NCBI GenBank assembly: GCA_044351045.1
Contig: JBILGM010000001.1
Coordinates: forward strand, 7,314-71,313
DNA: 64,000 nucleotides
Direction of reading: 5' to 3'
Source: Methylococcaceae bacterium
GTDB taxonomy: Bacteria; Pseudomonadota; Gammaproteobacteria; Methylococcales; Methylococcaceae
Part shown: one piece after another, positions 9,958 to 62,964 of the stretch
Layout of the letters: the number at the start of each line of letters is the position of its first letter
How positions within the stretch are numbered: the stretch's first letter is position 1
The notes under the pieces: generated by a model
The model's input: the letters and a program-made list of their open reading frames with translations, nothing else
Databases searched by the model: none
What the model was told of the DNA's origin: nothing
Translations under genes and position numbers: made by a program

Positions 9958-10470
9958 CTATTTTGCCAACCCACTGGCAGCGCGCATCAGCGTGTCCCTG
10001 TCCATGGAGCCACTGAACTTCAGCGGCAGCTTGCCCAAGGCGCCCAGCCAATTGTTCCAGATGAGGTTGCCGGTCACCTGATAATCCAGCGCCGGCCTGG
10101 TTTGCAGGATGAGGAGTTGCTTCACCGCACTCATGGTATTGGCGGTCACCTCGACATCCATTTCCGATGTGCCCAGCTTTTTCAGCACCAGCGGACTGCG
10201 GCTGACGCCCGCCGCGACCGGCTGGCCATTCAGGGCCAGGGCGACATCCGCACCGTCCAGATTCACATCCAGATCATTCGGGTTGTCCACTTTCAAACGC
10301 ACCAGAAAACTCGGGCTCAGTGGATTCAAATGCTTGATGTTGAGGCCGGCCAGAGAAACCTTGGGTTCCTTGAGATTTTTGTAGTCGGTGGTGAGCAGTG
10401 AACAGCCGGTTTGTGTCATGAACAGCGCGGCAAGCCACCATCCGGCGACCCGAGTGGAAAAGGCCTTCAT
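9958..10470 (-). CDS. LEA type-2 (WHy domain) family lipoprotein
   Basis: Lipobox MTQTGCS. The pattern KVSLAGLNIKHLNPLSPSFLVRLKVDNPNDLDVNLDGADVALALNGQPV is typical of bacterial LEA_2/WHy proteins. Confidence 0.75.
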   Translation of the reverse strand: MKAFSTRVAGWWLAALFMTQTGCSLLTTDYKNLKEPKVSLAGLNIKHLNPLSPSFLVRLKVDNPNDLDVNLDGADVALALNGQPVAAGVSRSPLVLKKLGTSEMDVEVTANTMSAVKQLLILQTRPALDYQVTGNLIWNNWLGALGKLPLKFSGSMDRDTLMRAASGLAK

Positions 10471-10541
10471 GGTTACGAGTCCCTTGAGTGTGTCAAAAAT
10501 AACGCCGGATTGTATCAGTCGGGAACAGCCGCCCCGCCGGG

Positions 10542-13500
10542 TTAAACGCCAAGATCAAGATGGATTGCCACGCGTTGATCGGCGGTCTCCGACGCGGGTT
10601 CAGCCGGGCCAATCACCAACCGCTGACGGTCGAATCGCTGCTTCTCCACCAGTTCAGTCATGACGGCCTTGGCGCGTTGCTCGGCCAGAGCCTCCAGTTG
10701 GCCGGCGGGCAACACGGTTTTTTCTTCCAGCTGCGCCAACAATTGCTGGTAAAAGTCGGGCGTCTGGCTGGGGCGACCTAATAGACCCGACATGGCGCCC
10801 ATGCGCTCGGGAGGGCGGCCTTTCTCCCGAGTATAGTCTGCCGCGACGCTGTCGGCTCCACCCGACTCTACGGCCAGCTTCTCCAGTACCCGCTGACTGG
10901 CCGCATCTCCAATGTTGACCGGGTCCGGGAGTTCGCCCGGTTTGAGCTCAATATCCAGCTGATTCGCCACAAGCCGTCGCACAGCCAATGCCTTCAGCGC
11001 TGTCGCATCGGCTTTTGCATCGATGCCGCCATGAATGGTGAGTTTTAGCTGGGCCTTGCCCGCGAGGCTGGCGGCCAGTTTTTGCAGCTTTTCCCGTTCG
11101 GGCGGCGGGATGTCCGATCGGCCCGCGTCGAAGGCCACGGTTCCTGGATCGCCATCACCCGAGCCGACCAGCGAGGCCAATGCTTTGAACGGGGCCATGG
11201 CGGCATTCTTGATGAGAGTGGTAAAGGCATCCCAGACCACGGTCCCATAGGCAAACTTGGGATCATCCAGTGTGCCCTCTACCGGGACAGACGCCTGAAT
11301 TTTCCCATCGGCATCGGTCAACAGGGCGATGGCCAGATCCAGCGGTAGTGAGGTCGCATTCGGACTTTCCACCTGTGCGCCCAGTTTGAATTGCTCCAGT
11401 GTGATCTTGTTCTGACTCTTAAGCTGATGATTTTCGATCTGGTATTGCAGGTCGAGATTCAGCTTGCCCGATTCAATCCGGCGACCGGCAAAGGTCGCGC
11501 TATACGGCGAGAGCGACGACATCGTCACGTTGCGAAACATCACATTGATATCGCTGAACTGCTTGATATCCATGGGGCTCAATGAACCGTCGACCCGGGT
11601 TTCGCCGAACTCGTCCACCTTGCCCGCCAATTGCAGCGTCATCCGGCTTTGTGGTGTCAGCGCGAAGCCGGCTATCGAGCCGCCAAAATCATGAACCCGG
11701 GTGGCAAACGGCAGGACCAGGCTGGCGTCGCTGAAGTCGACCTTGCCCTTTTCCACCAGAATCCGACCGATCGAAATCGGGAAGTCGGGCTGGCGCTTGC
11801 CTGACCCATGGGTCGCTTGCGCTGGCGGAGCGGCAGCGGTTTTGCGTGGCAGGATGATATCGCTGATATTCGAGCTCTTGTCCTCATGGATCGCAATCAC
11901 GCTGTCCGGTTCGACCAGTTTCAGTTCCCGGATCGTCAACTTGTCGGGTGTCAGGCTGAAATCGATGCCCTGGGTGCTCAGGTTCCCCCAGGCCAGGAAC
12001 TTCTTGCCGTCCCGGCTCTGGGGCAAATCGAGATTTGCGAGGTTGGCATCGCCAGTGACCCTGACTTTGGGTGTCGGAGTCGCCTGTTGATAATCCACCG
12101 CTAGATGGGTCGACAGGAGAGCGCTTTGTAGCTTCAGCGCCGCGAATTCACTCAGATAGGGCTGTAACTGCACAAGTGAAAAACGGTCGAGCGTGATCTG
12201 TGTCTTGGCGTGATCTCCCGTCGGCGACGCCGACCCGGCAAGGCTGAGCACGCCACCTTGGCGGATGGTTGTGCCCAGTTTGAAGTTCAGCGGTGTTTTG
12301 CCCGCCGTCGAGATGTTTTTAATCGATGCCTCTATCGCATCCAGATCGTAGGCCAAGGTGCCCACCGGACTGTGGTCTTTCACGCCGAACCCAAAATCAT
12401 TGATGGCCAGTTCGCCCAGACTGAACAGCCAGGGCTTTTCGGTGGTAGCTGTAGCTGTTTTTCCGGGCCCCGGTGTTTTGGTGCTGGCCGGGATCTGGGT
12501 CTGGCTTGAGGGCGACCTGTCCGATGCAAACAGCGAGACCGGATAAATCGCTCCGCTGGCTTGACGGGCGACCGCCGTTCCGCCGCCTTTCAAGGCTATC
12601 CGCCGAATCGAGGCGGCCTGTTTCGCCAGATCGACTTGGCCCTCTTCCAGTTTCAGCGAGTCCCACCTGAGCAGTGAAGTGTCGGATTCAGTTTCGCTTA
12701 CCGCCAAACGGTCAAGGCTGACGTCGATATGGCTGATGACCGCTTGAGGGGGACCGTTTCCAGCCACAGCATCGGCCTTGAGGCTGAGGCCCAGTGCACC
12801 CAGGGACGCCCTGATTGGGGCTGGGTGACTTTCGTCGGTGAAGTCCAGCGCCAGCTCACCGAGTTTGAATTGATCCACGGCCAGGCGCCAGGGTTTTGTT
12901 GGTGCAGCGTCGGCAGCGGCAGGTGCGGCTTTCGGCTCATTTGTGGCGGCTTGCGGCGGCAGCAGCGACAGCCAGTTCAGTTGGCCTGCCTTATCCAGTT
13001 TGGCGCTGACCGCGCCTTTGCCGAGCAGCCATCGGGGCACGTTTAGCGCTTGCTCCGGAAGATCAAGACTTACTTCCTCAAGGCGGACTTCATCCATTGT
13101 CAGGAGTGGGATTTTGGACTGCTTCAATGCAATCTGCTGAAGTCGGAGAGCCAAGTCGCCCACGTGTACGATGGGATCGGCTGCCCCGCCGGCGCTGACT
13201 TCGGCTTTCAACATCAGGCCAATGTTGCCGATGCCACCCTGCGCCTCGACGCCTGCTCGCGCATCGGCGAAATCGACCGCGAATTCGTCCAGATTCAATT
13301 GCCCCAGTTTGATTGTCCAGGGTGCTGCAGGCGGGGGGGCGTCTGGGGTTGGCGGTGGTGGTGGCGTCCTCGGGGCTGGTATGGCGGCTGCCGGCTTCAC
13401 CAGCGTTTGCCAGTTCAGTATCCCGGTTGGGTCGATGGCGAGATTGATTTTGCCCTTGCGCAACTCGATAGTCGGAATATCAATCGTCTGAGCCGCAAGA

Positions 13501-45620: not shown

Positions 45621-48359
45621 TCAGGCTGAGCGCAAATTGAGCCAGCGACGAATCATTTTTTCTATACCGACAATCAGGTAAATCACCAGGCCACTGCCAA
45701 TGGCCAGCAGCCACTCATCCAGTCCGAGGGGTACGGTATGGAACAGCCAGTTCATGGCGGGCAGATAGATCAACGCGGCCTGCGCCAGCATCATGGCGGT
45801 GATGCCCCACCAAACCCAAAGATTGGAAGACATGCCAAGCCGAAACATGGAATGGGTGAGTGATCGGCAATTGAGTAGATAGAACGATTGCCCCACGGCA
45901 AATACGTTGACGGCGGCAGTACGGGCTGTCTCCTCGGTTTCACCTTGCCAAGACTCCCATTCGAATAAGCCGAAGGCAGCAGTTGTCAGAAGTATGCCGA
46001 CGAGCAACGAACGAAACAGCAGCAGCCCGGTAAGGATCGGCTGATCGGGATGCCGTGGGCGCCGCTGCATGATGTCGGACTCCTTGGCTTCGAACGCCAG
46101 TGGCAGGCCCAGAAGGATCGCCGTTGTCATGTTTAGCCACAGAATCTGAACCGGCAGAATGGGCAAGGTCACTCCGAACAGCACCGCGATGAGGATGACC
46201 AAGCCTTGGCCGATATTGGTGGGTATCGTCCAGGTGATGAACTTGACCAGGTTGTCGTAAACCCCACGGCCTTCCTCAACGGCGGCGGCAATCGTGGCAA
46301 AGTTGTCATCGGTCAACACCATCGCGGCGGCCTCCTTGGAGACTTCGGTGCCGGTGATGCCCATGGCCACGCCAATGTTGGCCTGCCGCAGCGCCGGCGC
46401 GTCGTTGACGCCATCGCCGGTCATGGCGACGATGTGGCCGAGAGCCTGCAAGGCTGTCACCAAACGGAGTTTCTGCTCGGGCGCCACTCGCGCGAAAATC
46501 GTGGTTTTCTCGGCAACCCGAGGAAGGTCCGCGTCGCTGACTCCTTTCAGCGCCCGGCCATCCATGGCACGGATGGTCTCACCCGGATCGGCCAAGCCGA
46601 TCTGCTCGCCAATGGCAACGGCGGTACCGACATGATCGCCGGTGATCATCTTCACGCGAATCCCGGCGGCTCGACAATCGGCAACGGCCTTGATCGCCTC
46701 GGCTCTGGGGGGGTCGATCATGGCCTGCAGTCCCAGAAACGTCAGGCCTTCCGTCACCTGGAGGTGATCCAGTACACGCGGCTCAGACCGATGCTCACCC
46801 CGAGCGAAGGCCAGTACGCGCAGCCCCTGACCCGCCAATTCGGCGACTTCCCCATGAATGGCGGCCGGGTCCAGGGTTGTTTGCCCCAGTTGCGCATCGA
46901 ACGCGCGGTCACACCGTGCGAGCAGGCTTTCGACCGAGCCCTTGAGGTAGATATGGTGGGCATCCTCGGCTCGGTTGTGATGCAGAGTGGCCATGAACTG
47001 ATGCGCCGATTCGAAGGGAATGGCATCCAGGCGCGGGTGAGTGGCTTCGATTGGATCGCGGTGCAGCCCGGCCTTGTGGGCGGAGACCAGCAACGCGGCT
47101 TCGGTGGGATCACCCTCGATATGCCACTTCCCCGCCTCAGTGAAAAGCCGAGCATCGTTGCACAGCAGCCCGGCCCGCAGGGTCTCGATCAGGGCCGGTT
47201 GACTGGCCGGATCGATGGGTTGGTCTGGCCCGCGCCGGAATTCACCTTCCGGCGTGTAACCGGAACCACCCACCCGATAACGGACGCCGCCGGCAGATAC
47301 CGCCTGCGTGGTCATCTGGTTCTGGGTCAGGGTTCCGGTCTTGTCGGAGCAGATGATGGTGGTGCCGCCAAGGGTTTCCACGGCGGGCAGCTTGCGGATG
47401 ATGGCGTTGCGTTGGGCCATGCGTCGCACGCCGATAGCCAGCGTGATGGTGACGGCCACGGGCAGGCCTTCGGGAATGGCCGCCACAGCCAGTGCCACCG
47501 AGGCGATGAAGGATTCGACCAGATCCTCGCCCCGCCACCAGCCCACGGCAAAGGCGAGCGCGGCGAGGCCGATGATCAGCCACATCAATATCCAGCTGAA
47601 TTGGCCGATTTTCCGGGTCAGCGGGGTTTCCAGTTCCGTCGCCGCCGATATCATCTGGTTGATGCGGCCGATTTCGGTACGGTCGCCGGTTTCGATAACG
47701 ACACCGACACCGGTGCCATAGGTCACCAGTGTCGACGAATAGGCCAGATTGGCCCGGTCGGCCAGCAAGGTATCCTCCGGCAGTGTGTCAGCGTTTTTTT
47801 CCACGGGGACGGATTCGCCGGTCAAGGCGGATTCATCGATTTGCAGTTCCCTGCCTCGAAGCAGCCGCACATCGGCGGGGACCTTGTCGCCGGATTGCAG
47901 ATAAACCAGGTCGCCGGGAACCAGCGCCAGCGATGAAATCACCCCACGCTGACCATTGCGGAGCACATTGGCCTGAACGCTGAGCGCGTTAGCCAGGGCG
48001 GCAATCGCCCGTAAGGCATTCATTTCCTGGATGAACCCGATGATGGCATTGATCAGCACCACCCCGATGATGACGCTGGCATCCACCCAGCCCTTCAGCG
48101 GTCCGGTCACGAAGGCGGAAATGAGGAGGATATAGATAAGCGGATGGTGCAGCTGCGACAGAAATAGCCGGAGTGGGCTGATGCCCTTGCGTGGTGTCAA
48201 CCGATTGGGGCCAACGCTGTCGGTGCGTCGCTCGACTTCGGCGTCGGTCAGGCCGCTCTCTGACTGGGTGACCAGGCGGGATAGCACGGCCTCGGTGGAG
48301 ATGGCATGCCAATGAGTGGGCGCTGGTTTTTGCGTGATCTTTTTCATGGTCATTTTCAT
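45621..48359 (-). CDS. Cation-transporting P-type ATPase (P2-type, Ca2+/Mg2+-like)
   Basis: 912 aa with Cation_ATPase_N opening, TGES, the phosphorylation motif CSDKTGTLTQN, the hinge MTGDGVNDAPAL and 10 TM helices. Confidence 0.9.
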   Translation of the reverse strand: MKMTMKKITQKPAPTHWHAISTEAVLSRLVTQSESGLTDAEVERRTDSVGPNRLTPRKGISPLRLFLSQLHHPLIYILLISAFVTGPLKGWVDASVIIGVVLINAIIGFIQEMNALRAIAALANALSVQANVLRNGQRGVISSLALVPGDLVYLQSGDKVPADVRLLRGRELQIDESALTGESVPVEKNADTLPEDTLLADRANLAYSSTLVTYGTGVGVVIETGDRTEIGRINQMISAATELETPLTRKIGQFSWILMWLIIGLAALAFAVGWWRGEDLVESFIASVALAVAAIPEGLPVAVTITLAIGVRRMAQRNAIIRKLPAVETLGGTTIICSDKTGTLTQNQMTTQAVSAGGVRYRVGGSGYTPEGEFRRGPDQPIDPASQPALIETLRAGLLCNDARLFTEAGKWHIEGDPTEAALLVSAHKAGLHRDPIEATHPRLDAIPFESAHQFMATLHHNRAEDAHHIYLKGSVESLLARCDRAFDAQLGQTTLDPAAIHGEVAELAGQGLRVLAFARGEHRSEPRVLDHLQVTEGLTFLGLQAMIDPPRAEAIKAVADCRAAGIRVKMITGDHVGTAVAIGEQIGLADPGETIRAMDGRALKGVSDADLPRVAEKTTIFARVAPEQKLRLVTALQALGHIVAMTGDGVNDAPALRQANIGVAMGITGTEVSKEAAAMVLTDDNFATIAAAVEEGRGVYDNLVKFITWTIPTNIGQGLVILIAVLFGVTLPILPVQILWLNMTTAILLGLPLAFEAKESDIMQRRPRHPDQPILTGLLLFRSLLVGILLTTAAFGLFEWESWQGETEETARTAAVNVFAVGQSFYLLNCRSLTHSMFRLGMSSNLWVWWGITAMMLAQAALIYLPAMNWLFHTVPLGLDEWLLAIGSGLVIYLIVGIEKMIRRWLNLRSA

Positions 48360-48449
48360 CTGGCGTGGGCGACAGCAAGGTCGCCGGAAAATCTGGGGGG
48401 GTTATTTGATGGTATCGGTCAGGTGGCGGAATTTTCGAGTGCGTCGGGA

Positions 48450-48978
48450 GCCGCTCCGCCGCGCTCTTGATATGGATAAGCGCCGGCTTCAGGGTGTCCA
48501 TCTTCTCGCTCCGGGCGGCGAGTTCCGCCTGCAGTTTCAGGCCGGCCAGTGGGGTGCGCAGCTGATGCGCGGCATTTTCGATAAAGCGGCGCTGGGTGGT
48601 CATGGACGCCCCCAGCCGTTCCATGAGCGCGTTGAGCGTATGCGTCAGTGACCGCACTTCCAGCGGGACATCCGTATCCGGGATGGGCGTCAGATCCCGC
48701 GCCGAGCGGTCGTCGATGGATCGAGTCAGGTCTGCCAGCGGCTGAAGCCCGCGTTTGATCCCGCTCCAGACATGAAACAGGGTGACGAACACCAGCAGGA
48801 ATTGTGGCAGGGCCACGGCAAGAATGATCTCATTGGTTATGCCCCGGCGTTTGCGCAGCGTTTCGGCGACGGAAATCATGACCTCGTTGCCGCTGTTCGC
48901 CGGGGTCATCAGCACCGACACCACCCGCACTTTTTCGTTTTGCATGACCCGATCCGAGAACAGCGGTTGCGCCGGATT
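48450..48978 (-). pseudogene. Internal fragment of a sensor histidine kinase (TM2-HAMP-HisKA only)
   Basis: The reverse frame reads ...ILAVALPQFLLVFVTLFHVWSGIKRGLQPLADL ... RRFIENAAHQLRTPLAGL... (H-box). It has no TM1 or periplasmic start (stop at 48979-48981) and no HATPase domain. The frame degenerates and runs into the ATPase gene. Confidence 0.6.
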
Positions 48979-49386: not shown

Positions 49387-51079
49387 ATGAAAACGCATAA
49401 TAAGACAGGTGCACTGGGCATGGCTTTGCTCCTGGGGTTTGCGATAACCCCAAAGGGGCAGGCTGCTTCTAACGTCAAGTTCCGGACCGTTGTCAATAAC
49501 GGCATGACCATGCCGGATTCGGAAAACACATTCAATGCTTACAAACCAGCCCTCTGTGAACAAAAACGGGCAAGTAGTGATCCGTGCTCGGAGCAAAGGC
49601 GGTAGCGAGGGAGGGCAACCGACCAAGGGTATTTACTCAAGAAAAATGAAGGTCAGTGGAGCAAAGGCGAAAAGTCGTGCAAATAATGGGACGCTGGTGC
49701 CTCAACCCAACAACACGTCGGCCACCATCGTCGAGACACCCTCATTTCCAAGGATGGACCGAAACACAGGGTCATTTGCCTTCCGTGGCATGTCAAAGCC
49801 CGTATGGACGTATACCCCGGAGGGGGGTGAGGAGACCAAAATAGGCACGACCGGCGTCTACATGTCGCCCAAGGATCAGTTGATCACCGGTGTTAACCAA
49901 CTCGGTGTTGTTCCGGGGTTTGATTACTTCGCAGTTCCCAATGAGGCGTTGTCCTTAAAGTTCGATATGTTTCCGGGGGCCCCCTCGCCTGTCGGCAATA
50001 TCGTGACCTTCAAAGGCAACTACACGGTACCGGCGCCAACCGAGGCGAACCCGGATGCCACGATCGGCAAGACCGGGGTGTATTTCAGAAATACCAAAAA
50101 CGATGGCAAGAAAAATAAAACACCATTCCCCAGCGTTCTGATTGCTAATACGGATACGGTCATACCCAACGGCGATGGGGCAACCAGATTTGGTTCAACG
50201 GCCCCGCCCAGTGCTGCGGGCAAGAATATGGTCTTTGTCGGGTTTGATAACGAGGAAACGCCCAGCATGGGGGGCATCTATTTGGCTCCCTTGGTGGAAG
50301 GGCCCACGCTGACCACAATGATCGGGTTTGGTGGGCAAGTTCCTGGCCAGCCTGATGGCGCCGCATTCAATCGCCTGAGTGAGGGGGTGTCCTTTAGTGG
50401 TCGCTATGCCGCATTTTGGGGTGCGTGGGGTAGCCAGACGCGAACGAAGATCCTGACATGCCCGACTGACGGGAATAAGGACTTGATTGCTGACTGCCTG
50501 CAACATGACAACAACACGGAGGTGCAGATTCCCGTCAATCAGGGTTTCTTTGTGACTGATCTCAAGAAGGGGGTGACTGTGCCCATCGCGCTGACGACGC
50601 TGGATGGATTTGAAGATTTCCTTTACTGGAACTACTCAGGCCATGCGCCGGGGGCCAACGAACCGGATGAAGAAGGGGATGACGCAGAGCCCCCCCGCTG
50701 GCGCAACGCTACCTTTGTGGCCGTCGATGCATATAACCCTTCCACCGTGCGATTCAGGTCTGTTTTCAAGGGGACGAAAGCCGACCTCAATACAAAAGGT
50801 CTACCCCTGCAGGGCATCTACCTGGCCGACGGCCCGCAGCCGTCTCTCGATAGCCACATTGCAATTGTCGATACCAATACCTTGGGGAGTGTGGTTGATC
50901 CTTCAGTGGCGGCCATGAGCTCGGATACCGATCCGCTGATTGTGACTGCAGTGGGCATTGAGCGGGATGGGTTGCGTGCCAACTGGTTGGCCTTCAATTC
51001 CAGCATGGCTAATGCCGATGCCAGTGTTAGCTGGGCGGGTGTTTATGTGTCCAAGCTGCCCAACAAAATCAATCCATAG
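49387..51079 (+). pseudogene. Secreted repeat protein (NxxGxxAF-type tandem repeats) split by a +1 frameshift near 49540-49550
   Basis: ORF 49387-49605 supplies the signal peptide (MKTHNKTGALGMALLLGFAITPKGQA) and the first repeat. ORF 49535-51079, in the next frame, continues NQPSVNKNGQVVIRA and recurring (T)G(V/I)Y motifs. Together they read as one gene. Confidence 0.6.
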
Positions 51080-51303
51080 CGCCAGCAGCGCGCAAAGAGA
51101 CAATGACTTCGGGGCGGCAATAGTCGCCCCGTTCTTTTGGTGGGGTGTTTAACCTTGCAAAGACTCCCTATATGGGCAGCCAACAACGCTGCCGAAACCG
51201 ACAAGGCCCCTTGAATTGGTTGAAGGTTTCAGAGATTCCGGTTTTCCCCACAGGTGGCCCCGTGTGAAAATCTGTCATTACCGATTCCCCCTTGGAGCCC
51301 CGC

Positions 51304-53583
51304 ATGAATGACGCCCGCCCTGCTACTGCCTCGGTCATGGAGATTGCCGAGCACGACACTACGCTCGTCGTCCGGCTGTTCGGGCGCATTGACAGCAATC
51401 AATGTCAGACCATACACGAGCCGCTGATCGCCAGAATCACCGGGGCAGGAAAAGCCGTGGTGCTGGATATGGAGGAGGTCACTTTCGTGGCCTCCGCGTT
51501 CCTGCGCCTCTGCATCATGGCAGCCAAGCTTGTCGATGACCGCATCCGGATGATCAACGTCAGTCCCCTGCTCAAGAAGGTTTTCAAGATCGCCGGGCTG
51601 GACAGTCATATCACCATGACGGCGGGATCGTTCGATCCGGTCACGCCCCGCCATGAGCCGGTTTACCCGGTGGTCAAGGCGGCGGAGGCCAGGGCGTTGA
51701 TCACCGCCGAGCGTTACCGGGCCATGTATGACCGCTCGATCGCCGACCCGGACGGATTCTGGGCCGATCTGGCGAGTGACTTTCTGCAGTGGGACCAACC
51801 CTGGGATCAGCTGGCCCGGTGGGATTTCAGGAAGGCCCATATCGAATGGTTTCAGGGCGGCGCATTGAACGTCAGCGTCAACTGTCTCGACCGTCATCTG
51901 CCGATGCACGGTGAGCATGTCGCCATTCTCTGGGAAGGCGACGAACCGGGAGAACAGCGCCAGCTGACCTACCATGAGCTCTATGAGCAGGTCTGCCGAT
52001 TCGCCAATGTGCTCAAGGCCCGGGGCGTCCAGCGTGGTGATCGGGTCTGTCTTTATCTGCCGATGATTCCCGAGGGTGCGGTCGCCATGCTCGCTTGTGC
52101 ACGTATCGGCGCGGTGCACTCGCTGGTGTTTGGCGGCTTCTCTGCCGAAGCCCTGAAGGACCGCATCCTGGATGCCGGTTGTCACCACGTCGTTTGCGCG
52201 GATGAAGGCCGCCGCGGCGGTCGCCGCGTGCCGCTGAAGCAGAATGTTGATGCGGCGTTGCGAGGCTGCCCGGAGGTGACCTCGGTGATCGTCGTGCGCA
52301 ACACGCAAGGCGCCATCGACTGGGTGGAGGGGCGTGACCATTGGTATGACGAACAGATGGCTTTGGCCGACGTGCATTGCCCGCCCGAATCCATGGGCGC
52401 GGAAGATCCGCTGTTCATCCTCTACACCTCTGGCTCTACCGGCCAACCGAAGGGCGTGCTGCACACCACCGGCGGCTATCTGTTGTATGCGGCGGTCACC
52501 CATCGCTATGTCTTCGACTATCACGAGCATGAAGTTTACTGGTGTACGGCCGATCTCGGCTGGGTCACCGGGCATAGTTATGTGGTCTACGGGCCGCTGT
52601 GCAATGGCGCCACTACGCTGATGTTCGAGGGGGTGCCGAATTATCCGGATGCGGGCCGTTTCTGGCAGATCATCGAGAAATACCGGGTCAATATTTTCTA
52701 TACCGCCCCCACGGCCATCCGCGCACTGATGGGGCAGGGCAATCGCTGGGTACATGCCAGCGATCTTTCCAGTCTGCGGCTGCTGGGGTCGGTTGGCGAA
52801 CCGATCAACCCGGAGGCGTGGGCCTGGTACTACCACGTGGTCGGGGATTCTCGTTGCCCGATCGTCGACACCTGGTGGCAGACGGAAACCGGCGGCATCA
52901 TGATTACGCCGCTCGCCGGGGTCACCGACCTCAAGCCCGGCTCTGCCGCGCTCCCGTTTTTCGGTGTCCGGCCGGCCCTTCTTGATGAGGCGGGTAATCC
53001 GGTCCAGGGTCCGGGCGAAGGGGTACTGGTCATTGCGGGTTCCTGGCCGGGGCAGGCGCGCACCATTTATGGTGATCCGCAGCGGTTTTTCGATACCTAT
53101 TTTGCACCCTATCCCGGTTACTACTTCAGCGGCGACGGTGCCCGGCGCGACGAGGATGGCTATTACTGGATCACCGGGCGGGTGGACGATGTCATCAACA
53201 TTGCCGGACATCGTCTTGGTACGGCGGAAGTGGAGAGCGCTTTGGTGCTGCACCCCGACGTGGTCGAGGCCGCCGTCGTCGGCTATCCGCACCCGATCAA
53301 GGGCCAGGGTATTTACGCCTATGTCACGCTGGCGGCTGGCCTTGATACCAGCGAGGAGCTGCGCCGCGCGTTGATCGAACTGGTCCGTCACGAAATCGGC
53401 GCCATTGCCGCGCCCGACATCATTCAATGGGCCCCCGCGTTGCCCAAAACCCGCTCCGGCAAGATCATGCGCCGCATACTGCGTAAGATTGCCGCCGGGG
53501 AAATCGATCAACTGGGTGACATCACGACGCTGGCCGACTCGGCCGTTGTTGAGCAAATCATTCGCGAGTGCCGCTTGCACTGA
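51304..53583 (+). CDS. acs: Acetyl-CoA synthetase with an in-frame N-terminal STAS (anti-sigma-antagonist-like) domain
   Basis: The ATG at 51304 has a GGAG SD 6 nt upstream. Residues about 10-105 form a STAS pattern ([21 protein letters not shown]...[18 protein letters not shown]...[18 protein letters not shown]). From the ATG at 51616 a full Acs follows ([31 protein letters not shown]). No stop codon separates the two parts. Confidence 0.85.
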
Positions 53584-53606
53584 CTTTTGCCGCGGGACCC
53601 AAGCAG

Positions 53607-54743
53607 ATGCCATCCGACAAGCTATCAAGAAGATCTCGCTCTACTCTGGTGACCTATGCCATTGTCATACTCGCATTGATGGTGATCGGGACTTCATACC
53701 GTCACTATGTTGCACAGGGCACGAATATGGTCCATCGGGAAGTACTGCTTCCCATCGAGGGCCAGCAGTCGCCCGAGACCGCCATCGAGGTCGGGCTACT
53801 TATCGATAATGTCTATGCCTTCGAGGCGGACAAGAAAACCTTTGATGCCGATGGATGGATTTGGCTGAAATGGAGCCAGGCCCTGCACAGGAAAATGCTA
53901 CAGGTAGGGGTCAGCCCGGATGAACTCTTTCAATTTTTCAATCAAGTGGATGATTGGGATGCCACCCTGACACCCGGCAGCGACGCGCCCATTCCAATGG
54001 CGGATGGGCGGCTTTACCAGAAGTTCAGGTTCTCAGGGCACTTTTACGTCAATGAGCTTGATTTCAGGCTATATCCATTCCAGACCCTGAAATTGCCCCT
54101 GGTGGTTGAGCTGACCAACGAAAAACTGAAAGGGGAGGGTCCAGCCCTTGGTGTGACCCTGGATAAGGTGCACTCGGGGTTGGGCGATTATGTCGACCTC
54201 GGTGGTTATCAGACCCGGGGGCATGAATTCAAAGCCTGTCTCCACGAATACAAAACTTCGTTCGGCGAACCTGCCGCGACGTCCGGTCCACGACGTCTGC
54301 CGCAGGCCCGCATGGAGATTGCCTACCAGAAAGCGCCCACCGCCATGTGGCTGAAAGTCTTGCTGCCGTTGATCACGGTCATGGTTCTGGCTCTGTTTGC
54401 TCCGGACATCTCGGCATCGGGCTGGGATGTTCGGCTCGGAATTCCACCCATGGCGATTCTCACCCTCATGTTTTTGCAACAGACCTACCAGACCTGGATG
54501 CCCGAGCTTCCATACATTACTTTCCTGGATACCGTTTACAACCTCTGCTACCTGGCCAACCTGGTGCTGTTCCGGCTCTTCCTGTGGGGGACCAATGAAT
54601 ATTGTGCAGCTTCGGAAGAAGACAAGCCTGCGGTGGTTGCGCGAATCAACCGTGTGGATCTTTATTTCCAGGTGGGCATAACTGCGGTCATCGCTTTCAC
54701 CATCGCGGCCAACTGGTTCACCCTGAGCCGCCAGATTCAATGA
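53607..54743 (+). CDS. Prokaryotic pentameric ligand-gated ion channel (GLIC/ELIC-like) homologue
   Basis: N-terminal anchor, a beta-rich extracellular-type domain of about 200 aa (IEVGLLIDNVYAFEADKKTFDADGWIWLKWSQ) and then four TM helices with the M1-M2-M3-loop-M4 spacing. Confidence 0.55.
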   Translation: MPSDKLSRRSRSTLVTYAIVILALMVIGTSYRHYVAQGTNMVHREVLLPIEGQQSPETAIEVGLLIDNVYAFEADKKTFDADGWIWLKWSQALHRKMLQVGVSPDELFQFFNQVDDWDATLTPGSDAPIPMADGRLYQKFRFSGHFYVNELDFRLYPFQTLKLPLVVELTNEKLKGEGPALGVTLDKVHSGLGDYVDLGGYQTRGHEFKACLHEYKTSFGEPAATSGPRRLPQARMEIAYQKAPTAMWLKVLLPLITVMVLALFAPDISASGWDVRLGIPPMAILTLMFLQQTYQTWMPELPYITFLDTVYNLCYLANLVLFRLFLWGTNEYCAASEEDKPAVVARINRVDLYFQVGITAVIAFTIAANWFTLSRQIQ

Positions 54744-54753
54744 TCTTCAAGGC

Positions 54754-55086
54754 ATGATTCATTTCAGAGGGTCTGGTGCCCCGTTACATACCCGGCGCCT
54801 GGCCGTTTCAACCGCACTCATTGCGGCTGGAATATGGCCAAACAAGACGAATGCGTTGACCGCTGAAGATACAGCTACCCGAAATGAAGAGACGGCAGGC
54901 GCCGAAGAGGCCGCCCCGGCGGAGGGATGTGGTGATCTCGTTTCCACCATGGACGATCCGGGCCCCGACCTGGCCAACTTCCCCAATAGTTCCTTTACCC
55001 TCAAAGCCGGGGGCTTCTATGTTGAGTCCGCTCCCCTCAGCTTCTATGGTTCCACACCGGATGCCCCCTCCCGAATGGAAACCTAG
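54754..55086 (+). pseudogene. Probable truncated N-terminal fragment of an outer-membrane (MetA-pathway/transporter-like) protein
   Basis: 110 aa with a signal-like segment, then DDPGPDLANFPNSSFTLKAGGFYVESAPLSFYG, which resembles the first strands of such barrels. The ORF stops early, and 55087-55583 has no convincing continuation. Confidence 0.3.
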
Positions 55087-55583: not shown

Positions 55584-56147
55584 ATGAAGACAGAAGCACC
55601 CCAACCCAGTTTGAGCGAAATTCTTCACGAAGCCAGGCACTTTCATGAATCCCATGATTCCTTGCTGATGGCGACCGCCCGGCAGGATGTGCCAGTAGCC
55701 ACCTACGCGCCTTATGTGACGGATGATCGGGGATGTTTTTACATCTACGTGAGCGAGTTATCCGCTCACACCCCGAACCTGATGGAAAATCCTAAGGCCA
55801 GCGTGCTCTTCATCGAGGATGAGAGCGAGGCCCAGCATCTGTTTGGCCGCAAGCGCGTGACCTATACCTGTCGGGCCGAACCGGTGGCACGGGAGTCGGC
55901 CGACTTTGATCGCATCATGGATTGCTTCAAGGACAAACACGGCAAGTTCATGGACATGATGCGCGAGATGCGGGATTTCCACCTGTTTTGCCTGGTTCCC
56001 GAGCAGGGCAATTATGTGCGGGGCTTTGCTCAGGCTTACGAACTGCATGGCGATGGCCTCGGTGAAATCCGCCATGTCAACGACAAGGGCCATCGGGCGG
56101 GAACGGCCGAATCGGCCAAACAGATGGGCTCCATGGCGTCGACCTGA
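55584..56147 (+). CDS. hutZ: HutZ/HugZ-type heme utilisation protein (PNPOx-like fold)
   Basis: 187 aa. YVSELSAHTPNLMENPKASVLFIEDESEAQHLFGRKRVTY is the HutZ-like pattern. A hemS-type gene follows. Confidence 0.7.
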   Translation: MKTEAPQPSLSEILHEARHFHESHDSLLMATARQDVPVATYAPYVTDDRGCFYIYVSELSAHTPNLMENPKASVLFIEDESEAQHLFGRKRVTYTCRAEPVARESADFDRIMDCFKDKHGKFMDMMREMRDFHLFCLVPEQGNYVRGFAQAYELHGDGLGEIRHVNDKGHRAGTAESAKQMGSMAST

Positions 56148-56162
56148 AATCGAAGTACACCC

Positions 56163-57167
56163 ATGATAGAACCTACACCGGAAGCGCTGCGCGAGCGCTG
56201 GAACATACTGCTCAAGGAAACCCCTAAACTGCGCATTCGCGATGCTGCCGAGCAACTCGGCGTGTCCGAAGCGCAACTGCTGGCGCTAGGGAGCGGCGAG
56301 ACCTCAACCCGTCTCCGCGGCGATTGGGCTGACCTCTTGCTGGAATTGCATCGTCTGGGCCCACTGATGGGGCTCACTCGCAATGACCATGCCGTGCATG
56401 AACGGCACGGCGGCTATGGGGCACAGCAGGTTATGGGGCCCACGCGCCTGATCGAAGACGGGGGCTTTACCGCCGTTCTGTTTCTCGACCACTGGCACCA
56501 TGGATTTGCGGTTAGCGAAAGTGGGCACGGGCAGGTCCGGAGGAGCCTGCAATTCTTTGATCGCTTCGGCCAAGCGGTTCACAAGATCTACATGACTGAA
56601 CACAGCCGCGAAGAGCCCTTCCAGGAGATCGTTGACACGTTCCGTGCCGCTGATCAGGCCGAAATGCTGAATGTCGAGAACCCATTGACAGCGACGTCCC
56701 TCGACATGGTTGATCGTTTGTGGTCAAGCGCCGGGCTTTCGGGCGGGCCCAGGACCGGTGATGACACCGTGCCGGACCATCCGGACCTCGCCATCGATTC
56801 GCCAACGCTGCGGGTTCGGGCCCTGCCCCAAGGGACCGCCGAAACGGTACTTATGGTGGCGGCCGAACGGGGAACCGAGGTGGTAATAGCCGTGGGCAAC
56901 CGCGGTACCTTGCAAATGCATCGCGGACCCATTCACAAAATCCTGCGCACCGGGCCATGGATCAATGTCCTCGATGATCCCTTCAACTTGCATCTCCGCG
57001 ATACGCAGATCGCTTCCGGCTGGCATGTCGAGGAGGACGGTGGAACCGGTCAGGCTTATCTATGCTGGTGTGACTGCCAGCATCAGCCCATCCTTCAGAT
57101 TTCCAGCGAAGATCGTTCGGGCAGTTGGGCCGATTGCCTGGAAGCGGCATGTAAGCCGGCGCGGTGA
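56163..57167 (+). CDS. hemS: Hemin-degrading/heme-shuttle protein (HemS/ChuS/HmuS family)
   Basis: 334 aa. The opening LRERWNILLKETPKLRIRDAAEQLGVSEAQLLA and the duplicated-domain layout are typical of HemS/ChuS. Confidence 0.75.
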   Translation: MIEPTPEALRERWNILLKETPKLRIRDAAEQLGVSEAQLLALGSGETSTRLRGDWADLLLELHRLGPLMGLTRNDHAVHERHGGYGAQQVMGPTRLIEDGGFTAVLFLDHWHHGFAVSESGHGQVRRSLQFFDRFGQAVHKIYMTEHSREEPFQEIVDTFRAADQAEMLNVENPLTATSLDMVDRLWSSAGLSGGPRTGDDTVPDHPDLAIDSPTLRVRALPQGTAETVLMVAAERGTEVVIAVGNRGTLQMHRGPIHKILRTGPWINVLDDPFNLHLRDTQIASGWHVEEDGGTGQAYLCWCDCQHQPILQISSEDRSGSWADCLEAACKPAR

Positions 57168-60946: not shown

Positions 60947-61180
60947 ATGATCCCTGACCTTAGTCTTCTCAACGAGGGGGAGTCTGCCCTTATCCAGTCC
61001 ATTGAAGCGGATGAGGCACTCCATCACCGGCTGCAGGCGCTGGGGTTCCATGCTGGGAAGCCCGTGTCGGTGGTCCGCCTCGGGCGTTTTCAGGGGCCTT
61101 TGCAGGTGCGGGTCGGCATGACGGATGTGATCATGCGTCGGTCGGATGCCGCCAAGATCAAGATAGGTCCGCCACTTTGA
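60947..61180 (+). CDS. feoA: Ferrous iron transport protein A
   Basis: 77-aa SH3-like FeoA pattern (GESALIQSIEADEALHHRLQALGFHAGKPVSVVR). It overlaps the feoB start. Confidence 0.85.
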   Translation: MIPDLSLLNEGESALIQSIEADEALHHRLQALGFHAGKPVSVVRLGRFQGPLQVRVGMTDVIMRRSDAAKIKIGPPL

Positions 61181-62964
61181 AACGCATTGCCCTGTTGGGG
61201 ATGCCGAATACCGGCAAATCTACCTTCTTCAATCGCTTGACAGGGGCCCGTGCCCGTGTCGGCAACTGGCCCGGCATCACCGTCGACCTGATGACCGCCA
61301 AGACGATACTGGGTGCCGACTCGACTCAGGTGATCGACCTGCCGGGCATCTACAGTTTTCACGGGTTCTCCGAAGACGAAAAGGTCGTTCGTGACTTCCT
61401 GGAAAATAATGTCGTGGACTTGGTCGTCGTCATTCTCAATGCCACCCAGATCGACCGACAGCTCCCGTTAGCATTGCAGATCCGAAAGCTGGGTCTGCCC
61501 GCCGTGATCGTGCTGAACATGTCCGACGAGTCGCGTCAGCTGGGTATGCGGATCGATACCACGAAACTGGCCGAGGCACTGGGTTACCCGGTAGCCATGG
61601 TCAGTGCCAAATATGGCATGGGTTTCAATGAGGCCCGGCAGACCATCGGGCTCGCCTTGCAGACACCCCACCTGACTCCCGATCTGGGGCTGGAGCGGGT
61701 ATTTTCCGAGGATCATGAGATCGAGTCGGACACGGCCCGTATCCTGAGTTCGGCGGTGGACTTGCCCCGACAAATGCCGAAGGGACAGACCGCGCGGCTG
61801 GACCGGTGGCTGCTGCATCCCTGGTTGGGATTGCCGATTTTTTTTCTGCTTATGTTTTTGCTGTTTCAGTTCATATTCACACTGGGCAAGCCGCTGCAGG
61901 ATGGCGTGGCGTGGGTGCTGACAGAAATCCGGGACCGGGGGCTGGAACCCTGGATGGCAGACTGGCCGCCCCTGCTATCGGGTTTGTTGCTGGATGGCAT
62001 CTATAACGGGGTCGGCACGGTGGCCTCGTTTGTGCCGATCATCATTCTCTTCTTCCTGGTGATGACGCTAGTGGAGGACAGTGGCTACCTGTCCCGCGTT
62101 GCGTTTCTGATGGATGCCCTCATGGCAAAACTGGGGCTCGACGGCCGCAGTTTCGTCATGCTGCTGATGGGTTTCGGTTGCAATGTCCCTGCGTTGATGG
62201 GCACGCGGGTAATGCGGTCGCGGCCCCTGCGGCTGCTGACCATGCTGGTGGTGCCATTCTCGTTATGTTCGGCCCGGCTGCAGGTGTTCCTGTTCATGAC
62301 CGCTGCGCTTTTTTCCGCCCAGGCGGCGCCGGCAGTGTTGTTCAGCCTTTATTTGTTGAGTTTCCTGGCAGCGTTGCTGACCGCGCTGCTGTTCAAGGGG
62401 CGGTATGTCAGCACGGAACCCTTTGTTATTGAGCTGCCCCCTTATCGTTTGCCCACCTGGCGGCAAGTCGCGCTACGCGGCTGGCATGAAGTGCGGCATT
62501 TCCTGCGGCGAGCCAGCAAGTTCATCACGGCGGGCGTGGTCGCGGTGTGGCTGCTGACGCACCTGCCGACCAGCGTGCCCGCCAACAGTCCTGAAACCCT
62601 GGCTGGCCAGATTGCCATCTGGCTTGAACCGGTGCTGACACCGATCGGTATTGATGCTCAGCTCAGTTTGGCGCTGATCTTCGGCTTCGTCGCCAAGGAG
62701 ATCGTAGTCGGTTCACTGGCGGCCATTTATGGATTGGAGGGCGATGCGCTGATGGGCTTGATGGCCCAGAAACTGGACTGGGTGCAGGCCTACAGCTTCA
62801 TGCTGTTTACCCTGATCTATGTCCCATGCCTGTCGACGATTGCCACGCTCAAGCAGGAATCACGAAGCGTCGGCTTTACCTTGATTTCGGTGCTGTGGTC
62901 ATTAGTCCTGGCCTGGGTCACCTGTTTTGCCTTCTATCAGGGCGCTCGTGCATTGGGTTACTGA
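61177..62964 (+). CDS. feoB: Ferrous iron transporter B
   Basis: N-terminal G-domain (IALLGMPNTGKSTFFNRLTG ... DLPGIYS) followed by a polytopic gate domain. At 595 aa this is a short-form FeoB. Confidence 0.9.
   Translation: MKRIALLGMPNTGKSTFFNRLTGARARVGNWPGITVDLMTAKTILGADSTQVIDLPGIYSFHGFSEDEKVVRDFLENNVVDLVVVILNATQIDRQLPLALQIRKLGLPAVIVLNMSDESRQLGMRIDTTKLAEALGYPVAMVSAKYGMGFNEARQTIGLALQTPHLTPDLGLERVFSEDHEIESDTARILSSAVDLPRQMPKGQTARLDRWLLHPWLGLPIFFLLMFLLFQFIFTLGKPLQDGVAWVLTEIRDRGLEPWMADWPPLLSGLLLDGIYNGVGTVASFVPIIILFFLVMTLVEDSGYLSRVAFLMDALMAKLGLDGRSFVMLLMGFGCNVPALMGTRVMRSRPLRLLTMLVVPFSLCSARLQVFLFMTAALFSAQAAPAVLFSLYLLSFLAALLTALLFKGRYVSTEPFVIELPPYRLPTWRQVALRGWHEVRHFLRRASKFITAGVVAVWLLTHLPTSVPANSPETLAGQIAIWLEPVLTPIGIDAQLSLALIFGFVAKEIVVGSLAAIYGLEGDALMGLMAQKLDWVQAYSFMLFTLIYVPCLSTIATLKQESRSVGFTLISVLWSLVLAWVTCFAFYQGARALGY

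Follow-up and report, generated by a model that had tools for sequence, protein, structure and literature searches.

An N-terminal STAS domain fused to acetyl-CoA synthetase in Methylococcaceae, and its relatives encoded beside acetyl-CoA-forming enzymes

We analyzed a stretch of 64,000 nucleotides (nt) from Methylococcaceae bacterium (GenBank assembly GCA_044351045.1, contig JBILGM010000001.1), referred to below as the window, in which the gene for acetyl-CoA synthetase (Acs) is preceded in frame by the coding sequence of a STAS domain. Judged from its sequence, the gene encodes one polypeptide, i.e. a STAS domain of the anti-sigma-factor antagonist type, a tether of about 25 amino acids (aa), and a complete AMP-forming Acs that is predicted to be catalytically competent. 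The STAS-Acs architecture is real, conserved, and recurrent, and it is deposited in databases yet unremarked there. Going beyond an initial annotation of the window, we found a specific association of the STAS subfamily with enzymes that form acetyl-CoA, foremost CoA-acylating acetaldehyde dehydrogenase (ACDH). We modestly favor the view that this subfamily supplies acetyl-CoA/acyl-CoA enzymes with phospho-switchable regulatory subunits, and that such a subunit is tethered here in cis to Acs.

The fusion gene and its conservation

A single open reading frame (ORF) is open from TTG 51292 / ATG 51304 to the stop codon at 53581-53583 and encodes 759 aa when it is read from ATG 51304. The initial annotation, which was made from the sequence alone, had proposed that an Acs of about 655 aa beginning at ATG 51616 is in frame with about 104 upstream codons, that these codons encode a well-formed STAS/SpoIIAA-like domain with a Ser at the phosphorylatable position, and that only ATG 51304 has a GGAG Shine-Dalgarno (SD) motif. 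All of these proposals were borne out by the results described below; ATG 51616 is Met105 of the fusion protein, and 655 codons follow from there on. The features of the gene are listed here, where dN/dS is the ratio of nonsynonymous to synonymous divergence and pLDDT is the local confidence value of the structural model.

51304-53583, forward strand: STAS-Acs fusion gene, 759 codons plus stop; the exact protein is in a 57-member cluster at 90% identity
51304-51336, forward strand: N-terminal tail, aa 1-11; dN/dS about 1 or higher, pLDDT 53; Met12 is used as start by some gene callers (P0295)
51337-51621, forward strand: STAS domain, aa 12-106, with a SpoIIAA/RsbV-type fold (Pfam, PDB phmmer, AlphaFold2, Foldseek, dN/dS)
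51493-51495, forward strand: codon of Ser64, which caps helix alpha2 at its N-terminus and is the putative phospho-acceptor; the motif VASAFLRLC spans 51487-51513
51616-51618, forward strand: Met105, candidate relic of an ancestral Acs start (alignment with free-standing STAS proteins; no SD motif)
51622-51705, forward strand: tether, aa 107-134, from STAS to ACAS_N; conserved in sequence (dN/dS) and predicted to be flexible
51715-53463, forward strand: catalytic body of Acs with ACAS_N, AMP-binding, and AMP-binding_C (Pfam, NCBIfam, ANL motifs)
53461-53463, forward strand: codon of Lys720 in the motif PKTRSGK(720)IMRR, invariant in the Acs alignment

In the fusion protein, Pfam recognizes STAS_2 at aa 23-100 (35.5 bits, gathering threshold 29.2) and STAS at aa 13-105 (29.1 bits, gathering threshold 22.6). 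The Acs part comprises ACAS_N (aa 138-194), AMP-binding (aa 197-580), and AMP-binding_C (aa 642-720), and the NCBIfam models for acetate--CoA ligase, TIGR02188 and NF001208, match aa 118-755 with 1014.2 bits (cut-off 724.95) and 1048.4 bits (cut-off 657), respectively. Two ANL core motifs, at 52423-52455 and 53176-53214, are intact and, together with the Lys720 motif, invariant in the Acs alignment. Lys720 is presumably the catalytic lysine that is acetylated in characterized Acs (cf. Lys609 of Salmonella enterica Acs). A horizontal insertion of the STAS segment was considered as well, but the GC fractions at third codon positions are alike (0.77 for STAS, 0.74 for Acs) and give no sign of a recent foreign origin.

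Among solved proteins, a phmmer search of the PDB found SpoIIAA to be closest (1h4x with an E value of 2.6e-6, 1th8, 1auz), together with other anti-sigma antagonists. In HMMER alignments with the SpoIIAA structures 1h4x, 1h4y, and 1th8, Ser64 falls on the first Ser of the D-S-S-G motif, the residue that SpoIIAB phosphorylates. A comparison of 67 subfamily members leaves only three invariant residues, Ser64, Arg68, and Phe94; the subfamily motif is V-A-S-[AS]-F-L-R-L-C. An AlphaFold2 model, which covers aa 1-159 without the Acs body and is based on an alignment of 67 sequences that is shallow at the tether, has pLDDT values of 93-96 over aa 12-106, a beta-alpha-beta topology, and helix alpha2 at residues 64-76. 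Within this model, aa 113-130 of the tether have values <50, suggesting that the tether is flexible.

The top 24 Foldseek matches of the model are anti-sigma-factor antagonists. They include the RsbV chain of an RsbV/RsbW complex (6m36_B, TM score 0.86, root-mean-square deviation 1.8 A) and the SpoIIAA chain of a SpoIIAB complex (1thn_B). The STAS domains of MlaB, RsbS, and SLC26 rank lower, with RsbS (6jhk) and the stressosome (7b0u) at rank 30 or beyond. The matches also include the complex of a STAS domain with acyl carrier protein (3ny7), and SulP-type and acyl carrier protein-binding STAS domains are more distant than RsbV and SpoIIAA. According to Pfam, the fusion protein has no transporter domain and thus lacks the SulP/SLC26 layout, in which STAS is C-terminal to Sulfate_transp. 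The layout is also not that of the stressosome proteins of the RsbR/RsbS type: STAS is N-terminal here, and genes for the RsbT kinase or RsbS were not found in the window.

The region upstream of the fusion gene contains three elements.

51110-51131, forward strand: terminator-like hairpin followed by a T-run at the end of the upstream gene (514 aa); the hairpin is kept in L007
51262-51272, forward strand: conserved GTGTGAAAATC element about 32 nt 5' of the ATG; invariant in the window, L007, L008, and L095-L097
51294-51297, forward strand: SD motif GGAG, 6 nt 5' of ATG 51304; the same in 9/9 group-1 sequences (the Methylococcaceae-type fusions introduced below) at 6-9 nt

The terminator-like hairpin closes the upstream gene, implying that the fusion gene has its own promoter. 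A consensus promoter scan upstream of the fusion gene called nothing, the GTGTGAAAATC element included; the element may be an extended -10 region (TGn-GAAAAT) or a half-site of a regulator. The window contains no SD-like 4-mer within 18 nt 5' of ATG 51616, and an SD-like element 5' of Met105 is likewise missing from all nine group-1 sequences. Met105 itself is kept in all of them. In alignments, free-standing STAS proteins terminate exactly at the position of Met105, as would be expected if the stop codon that once separated a STAS gene from acs had been lost. Met105 is probably what remains of the start codon of the ancestral Acs.

A scan of species-representative genomes revealed the same architecture in two metagenome-assembled genomes (MAGs) of Methylococcaceae, one with an intact ORF of 760 aa (L007) and one in which the ORF runs off the end of the contig (L008). 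A metagenome scan yielded four more fusions (L095-L098) with a frame that is open through the junction, of which L095 is complete with 759 aa. The stop codon or frameshift that could have betrayed two separate genes was therefore not seen in related sequences, and because the junction is in frame in all six, the fusion is not a sequencing error of the window. In all, the in-frame fusion is present in more than eight further contigs of Methylococcaceae from MAGs or metagenomes. We refer to the fusions of this type as group 1. An exact look-up placed the window protein, L007, and L095 in the same 57-member cluster, the members of which are named only “acetyl-CoA synthetase” or “acetate--CoA ligase” (e.g. 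MCF7968290.1, Methylococcaceae bacterium); a member of 748 aa is the same protein called from Met12.

Several candidates were set aside. The first homology searches gave only the fragments P0001 and P0002 and made the fusion appear near-unique, which was misleading, as these searches had missed the 57-member cluster. P0296 (646 aa) seemed to be an unfused variant, but it is a cluster member truncated at a contig edge. L019 (Chromatiaceae), with an apparent match from aa 60, is an ordinary Acs with a spurious upstream extension of the ORF. As to the two fragments, P0001 (L087 74-640) is from a contig at 0.14x coverage and has one in-frame stop in the Acs N-terminus, being otherwise in frame. 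P0002 (L088 34-576) has STAS and tether followed by a DUF2924-like tail on a contig of 581 nt, i.e. it is a chimera or a rearrangement.

Pairwise dN/dS values were estimated by the method of Nei and Gojobori. They are 0.09-0.23 for the STAS domain, at dS values of 0.45-1.2, 0.06-0.30 for the tether, and 0.09-0.16 for the adjacent N-terminal region of Acs. Residues 1-11 are the only part that looks unconstrained. By these estimates, STAS and linker are under purifying selection similar to that on the adjacent Acs region. The genes flanking the fusion differ among the loci, indicating that the fusion gene travels as its own unit.

A second fusion and the free-standing relatives

An exhaustive HMMER search, in which aa 1-170 of the fusion protein were compared with 1.84 billion representatives, retrieved four fragments (P0080, P0138, P0139, and P0172), which align across STAS, linker, and ACAS_N at 28-30% identity and have the Pfam domains STAS, ACAS_N, and AMP-binding. 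The metagenome scan provided a full-length representative, a STAS-Acs of 761 aa (HJO95169.1, named “acetate--CoA ligase”) on a contig assigned to a Victivallales MAG (L154). Directly 3' of this gene are two ACDH genes and then a free-standing STAS gene. The cluster representative of the Victivallales fusion is a C-terminal fragment of 112 aa, which hides the fusion.

The Victivallales-type fusions (group 2), to which the 761-aa protein and the four fragments belong, are not closely related to group 1 in either half. The group-1 STAS domain is 45-55% identical to about 250 free-standing STAS proteins versus 24-32% to the group-2 STAS, which ranks last. The group-1 Acs part is 72% identical to an unfused Acs of Methylococcus sp. 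and 49% to the fused Acs of Victivallales, and the Acs proteins of the two groups sit apart in a rough neighbor-joining tree. Sequence comparison thus indicates at least two independent origins of the STAS-Acs fusion. The junction of the group-2 proteins lacks a Met, so that a separate Acs cannot start there. The proposed search for the spread of the domain architecture led to the 57-member cluster and to an independent fusion in Victivallales.

Two further observations concern group-2 loci. In L093 (9057-10064), on a contig of 25.5 kb, a group-2 STAS-Acs gene encodes only 335 aa, in which a remnant of AMP-binding of about 60 aa connects STAS and ACAS_N to the C-terminal domain. The protein thus lacks the greater part of its catalytic core, and both a natural deletion and an assembly collapse are possible. 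L154 also encodes a PF11964 SpoIIAA-like protein upstream (2338-2700) and an ADP-ribosylglycohydrolase just 3' of the free STAS gene (10404-11360).

The nearest non-fused relatives of the STAS domain are free-standing STAS proteins of 96-110 aa, which are 38-55% identical. We analyzed the neighborhoods of 79 distinct free-standing STAS genes, i.e. genes non-identical in the last 80 residues, which were pooled from protein look-ups and the metagenome scan. Neighbors were classified with ad hoc hidden Markov models (HMMs) built from seed proteins; the “ACS” HMM was contaminated by the STAS part of fusion ORFs, and its matches to ORFs of about 100 aa were disregarded and only those at E <1e-50 counted. 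Among the 68 STAS genes with at least 600 nt upstream, 52 directly follow an Aldedh gene of the same orientation, with gaps of typically 10-25 nt. We regard the STAS proteins of these pairs as co-translated with the Aldedh protein. The Aldedh proteins are of the ACDH type, with 565-580 bits on the NCBIfam model for the N-terminal domain of AdhE; they score 485-498 bits on TIGR02518, below the equivalog cut-off of 620, and the family was assigned by best match. The ACDH-STAS pair is present in L154 (7003-10285) and in about 50 other loci (e.g. L001 4556-6321, L114 8525-10297), whose contigs are assigned to Gammaproteobacteria or Lentisphaerota or, in many cases, to no taxon.

For 29 “well-flanked” loci, i.e. 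free-standing STAS genes with at least 3 kb on both sides, the wider neighborhoods were compared. An Aldedh gene lies within 3 kb in 22 of the 29, and LuxC/LuxE acyl-activating genes take its place in five, so that Aldedh or Lux genes are found in 27/29. An RsbW-like HATPase_c_2 kinase is encoded at 20 of the 29 loci, and the same fraction (20/29) holds for a SpoIIE/PP2C phosphatase. The phosphatases often carry HAMP or dCache sensor domains, and the ATP-binding motifs N, G1, and G2 are conserved in the RsbW-like kinases. Of the two loci with neither Aldedh nor Lux genes, one (L162 8381-10988) has its STAS gene between genes for an acetyl-CoA hydrolase/transferase and a gamma-type subunit of pyruvate:ferredoxin oxidoreductase (POR). 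The ACDH-STAS gene pair, usually with an RsbW-like kinase and a PP2C phosphatase, appears to be undescribed. The term “partner-switching-type module”, which the initial annotation had used, is justified by these free-standing subfamily members.

Variants of the cassettes were also observed. In STAS/RsbW/SpoIIE cassettes without ACDH, LuxE (acyl-protein synthetase) and a LuxC-AMP-binding fusion of about 836 aa are encoded within a few kb (L004 9921-12294, L091 8032-10309, L123, L124, and L138; Sulfuricellaceae and Pseudochelatococcus). In L115, L122, L125, and L137 (e.g. L125 5999-8365), a single protein of 787-800 aa beside ACDH-STAS matches the profiles of both the RsbW-like kinase and the SpoIIE phosphatase. 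No sigma-factor domain was present in the Pfam tables of L001-L006 and L091 or among the window neighbors scanned, which include only part of the ORFs.

Taken together, the same STAS subfamily was fused to Acs twice independently, in one case within an ACDH operon, and this speaks strongly for a direct functional link between STAS and Acs, which is probably also physical. The association of the STAS/RsbW/PP2C module with the acetyl-CoA node is apparently broader and unrecognized.

A proposed phospho-switch and its alternatives

In the mechanism that we propose, an RsbW-like kinase would phosphorylate the invariant Ser (Ser64 in the window protein), a sensor-linked PP2C phosphatase of the SpoIIE type would remove the phosphate on a signal, and the state of the STAS domain would alter the activity or assembly of the bound enzyme. 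In the methanotroph lineage, the subunit would sit covalently on Acs, allowing control in cis, and the kinase/phosphatase pair would be encoded elsewhere in the genome. For the organism studied here, we infer that Ser64 is phosphorylated, that kinase and phosphatase are encoded in trans in its genome, and that Acs is the regulated party.

The closest formal parallels are the SpoIIAA/SpoIIAB/SpoIIE and RsbV/RsbW/RsbU modules of Bacillus, which share the STAS fold and the Ser at the phospho-acceptor position, and in which the STAS protein is likewise encoded with a HATPase_c_2 kinase and a PP2C phosphatase, as are the relatives of the window STAS. In contrast to these modules, STAS is joined here to a metabolic enzyme of 655 aa, the loci examined have no sigma factor, and the gene partner is an acetyl-CoA-forming enzyme. 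In Vibrio fischeri, the phosphorylatable STAS protein SypA is under kinase/phosphatase control by SypE and has a non-sigma output, i.e. biofilm polysaccharide (PMC10120452, PMC8256260). By analogy, a STAS switch of the SypA/SypE type is the closest functional counterpart, and the single RsbW-SpoIIE fusion proteins of 787-800 aa at some ACDH-STAS loci resemble SypE. Unlike the present case, a link to a metabolic enzyme or a fusion with one is not described for SypA/SypE, and a review devoted to STAS-only proteins contains neither “enzyme” nor “metabol”.

STAS is also a fused regulatory or interaction module in RsbR of the stressosome, in YtvA (LOV-STAS), and in SulP/SLC26 proteins. However, it is C-terminal to a sensor or transporter there and N-terminal to a soluble enzyme of the ANL superfamily here, and these STAS domains are structurally more distant. 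The STAS domain of YchM binds acyl carrier protein, which is a precedent for STAS touching acyl metabolism. Known control of Acs in bacteria is transcriptional and by lysine acetylation (Pat/CobB in Salmonella enterica). Acetylation by Pat/CobB has the same target enzyme, and the acetylatable Lys is kept here (Lys720), so both layers may coexist; it modifies a lysine of the C-terminal domain, whereas the signaling domain considered here is appended at the N-terminus. Searches of 8.3 million full texts retrieved no paper linking STAS or anti-anti-sigma factors with Acs or acetaldehyde dehydrogenase, in keeping with the earlier suggestion of an undescribed layer of control.

Several observations weigh against the proposed mechanism. 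The STAS domain misses the TIGR00377 (ant_ant_sig) cut-off (47.1 versus 53.45 bits), and the residues around Ser64 are A-S-A-F in contrast to the canonical D-S-S-G; by sequence, the domain thus is a divergent branch of the SpoIIAA/RsbV phospho-switch class. Searches with tblastn using the RsbW-like, SpoIIE-like, and ACDH proteins of the relatives gave no match in the 64 kb of the window or in the retrieved sequences that flank the other group-1 fusions, and cis-encoded kinase, phosphatase, or ACDH partners of the group-1 fusion were therefore rejected. The kinase/phosphatase genes suggested for a look-up by the initial annotation are thus not near the fused gene, the window covering only part of the host genome. 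The fact that kinase and phosphatase are not alongside, together with the missed TIGR00377 cut-off, explains why the protein is not filed as an anti-sigma-factor antagonist. In addition, two subfamily motifs were used to collect the neighborhood sample from metagenomes, most of it has no taxonomic assignment, and phylogenetic non-independence is only partly controlled. Lastly, gene adjacency and fusion show functional association and do not distinguish STAS acting on the enzyme from the reverse.

This reverse direction leads to a different interpretation, in which Acs would do the sensing and pass the signal on through the tethered STAS, which would bind and titrate an RsbW-type anti-sigma factor/kinase and thereby release a sigma factor or another RsbW target. 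The input would be the amount or catalytic state of Acs (availability of acetate, ATP, and CoA), similar to the situation in RsbR or YtvA. Multi-domain proteins with a sensor and STAS are an established class, the nearest folds are those of RsbV and SpoIIAA bound to RsbW and SpoIIAB, respectively, and the alpha2 motif, which faces the kinase, is the same throughout the fused and the free-standing forms. However, neither the Pfam tables of the cassettes nor the scanned window neighbors contain a sigma-factor gene, the domain order is the reverse of that in RsbR and YtvA, and the tight coupling to ACDH suits an enzyme-associated subunit better than a sigma switch. We regard the sensor role of Acs as rather unlikely. 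An action of STAS that is independent of phosphorylation is also unlikely; here, the domain would bind a small ligand (nucleotide, anion, or CoA/phosphopantetheine) or serve docking or oligomerization with ACDH-type enzymes, and the Ser would have a structural or binding role. Compatible with this are the lack of a kinase or phosphatase near any group-1 fusion and at about one-third of the well-flanked free-standing loci, the composition of L154 (STAS-Acs, two ACDHs, free STAS, and no kinase within the fetched flanks), and the acyl carrier protein-bound STAS among the structural matches. Yet about two-thirds of the well-flanked loci encode kinase and phosphatase, with intact ATP-binding motifs in the kinases, the Ser is invariant exactly at the phospho-site, and the SulP-type and acyl carrier protein-binding domains are structurally further away than RsbV and SpoIIAA.

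It is very improbable that the fusion is inert, or that an internal start at Met105 yields an ordinary Acs, with STAS as the leftover of a lost stop codon. The end of the free-standing STAS proteins exactly at Met105 fits such a loss, and the conservation of Met105 throughout group 1 could be read in the same way. These points are outweighed by purifying selection on STAS and linker that is as strong as on the adjacent Acs region, with dS values up to about 1.2, by the distribution of the SD motif (9/9 before the first ATG, 0/9 before Met105), and by group 2, in which the junction Met is missing and the same architecture arose a second time. The phospho-switchable subunit remains our preferred interpretation of the STAS subfamily. 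A more far-reaching version, which we put at somewhat less than an even chance, is that of a widespread, undescribed family of phospho-switchable STAS regulatory subunits for ACDH, Acs, acetyl-CoA transferase/POR, and LuxC/LuxE in several phyla, under the control of RsbW-like kinases and sensor-linked PP2C phosphatases.

Surroundings of the fusion gene and implications

Directly upstream of the fusion gene (49535-51079, forward strand) is the gene for the 514-aa protein, which has no Pfam family and is conserved, with 88-91% identity, only in L007. Overlapping the acs stop codon, an ORF at 53568-54743 (forward strand) encodes a 391-aa homologue of prokaryotic pentameric ligand-gated ion channels (GLIC/ELIC-like), which matches 5osa with an E value of 1.8e-5 and also 4twd and 2yn6 in the phmmer search of the PDB and has no Pfam match at 1e-3. 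The channel homologue (76% identity) and a 110-aa ORF (54754-55086) are kept 3' of the fusion in L095, and the channel is absent in L007. At 47989-48945 (reverse strand), a truncated sensor histidine kinase, with 2CSK_N, HAMP, and HisKA before the frame is lost, overlaps a gene for a P-type cation ATPase (45621-48359) at its 5' end. As the same fragment is seen in L007, L095, and L097, it is an old pseudogene or a misread frame. Iron/heme acquisition genes at 55584-57167 and 61177-62964 (forward strand; HugZ-like PNPOx protein, HemS/ChuX, FeoB) form an ordinary downstream context with no apparent connection to the fusion. Scans of the window for Rfam families and tRNAs gave no match.

Acs and ACDH form the gateway between acetate/acetaldehyde and acetyl-CoA, and a STAS switch of the Ser-phosphorylation type would be a separate regulatory layer at this point. 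The hosts of the fusion include freshwater methanotrophs, in which acetate handling affects carbon flow. Present annotation misses the STAS domain, the deposited proteins being labelled only as ligases, and the proposed role would offer a candidate function for the large set of “anti-anti-sigma factor” genes without a sigma factor nearby. The fusion is also an experimental handle, with regulator and target in one polypeptide and a single candidate phospho-site. If the proposed mechanism is true, partner switching would be extended from sigma-factor control to the direct control of central metabolic enzymes. If the wider family exists, the acetyl-CoA node would be under post-translational control resembling partner switching, and the STAS-Acs proteins would be “Rosetta-stone” fusions that reveal a direct contact of STAS and enzyme.

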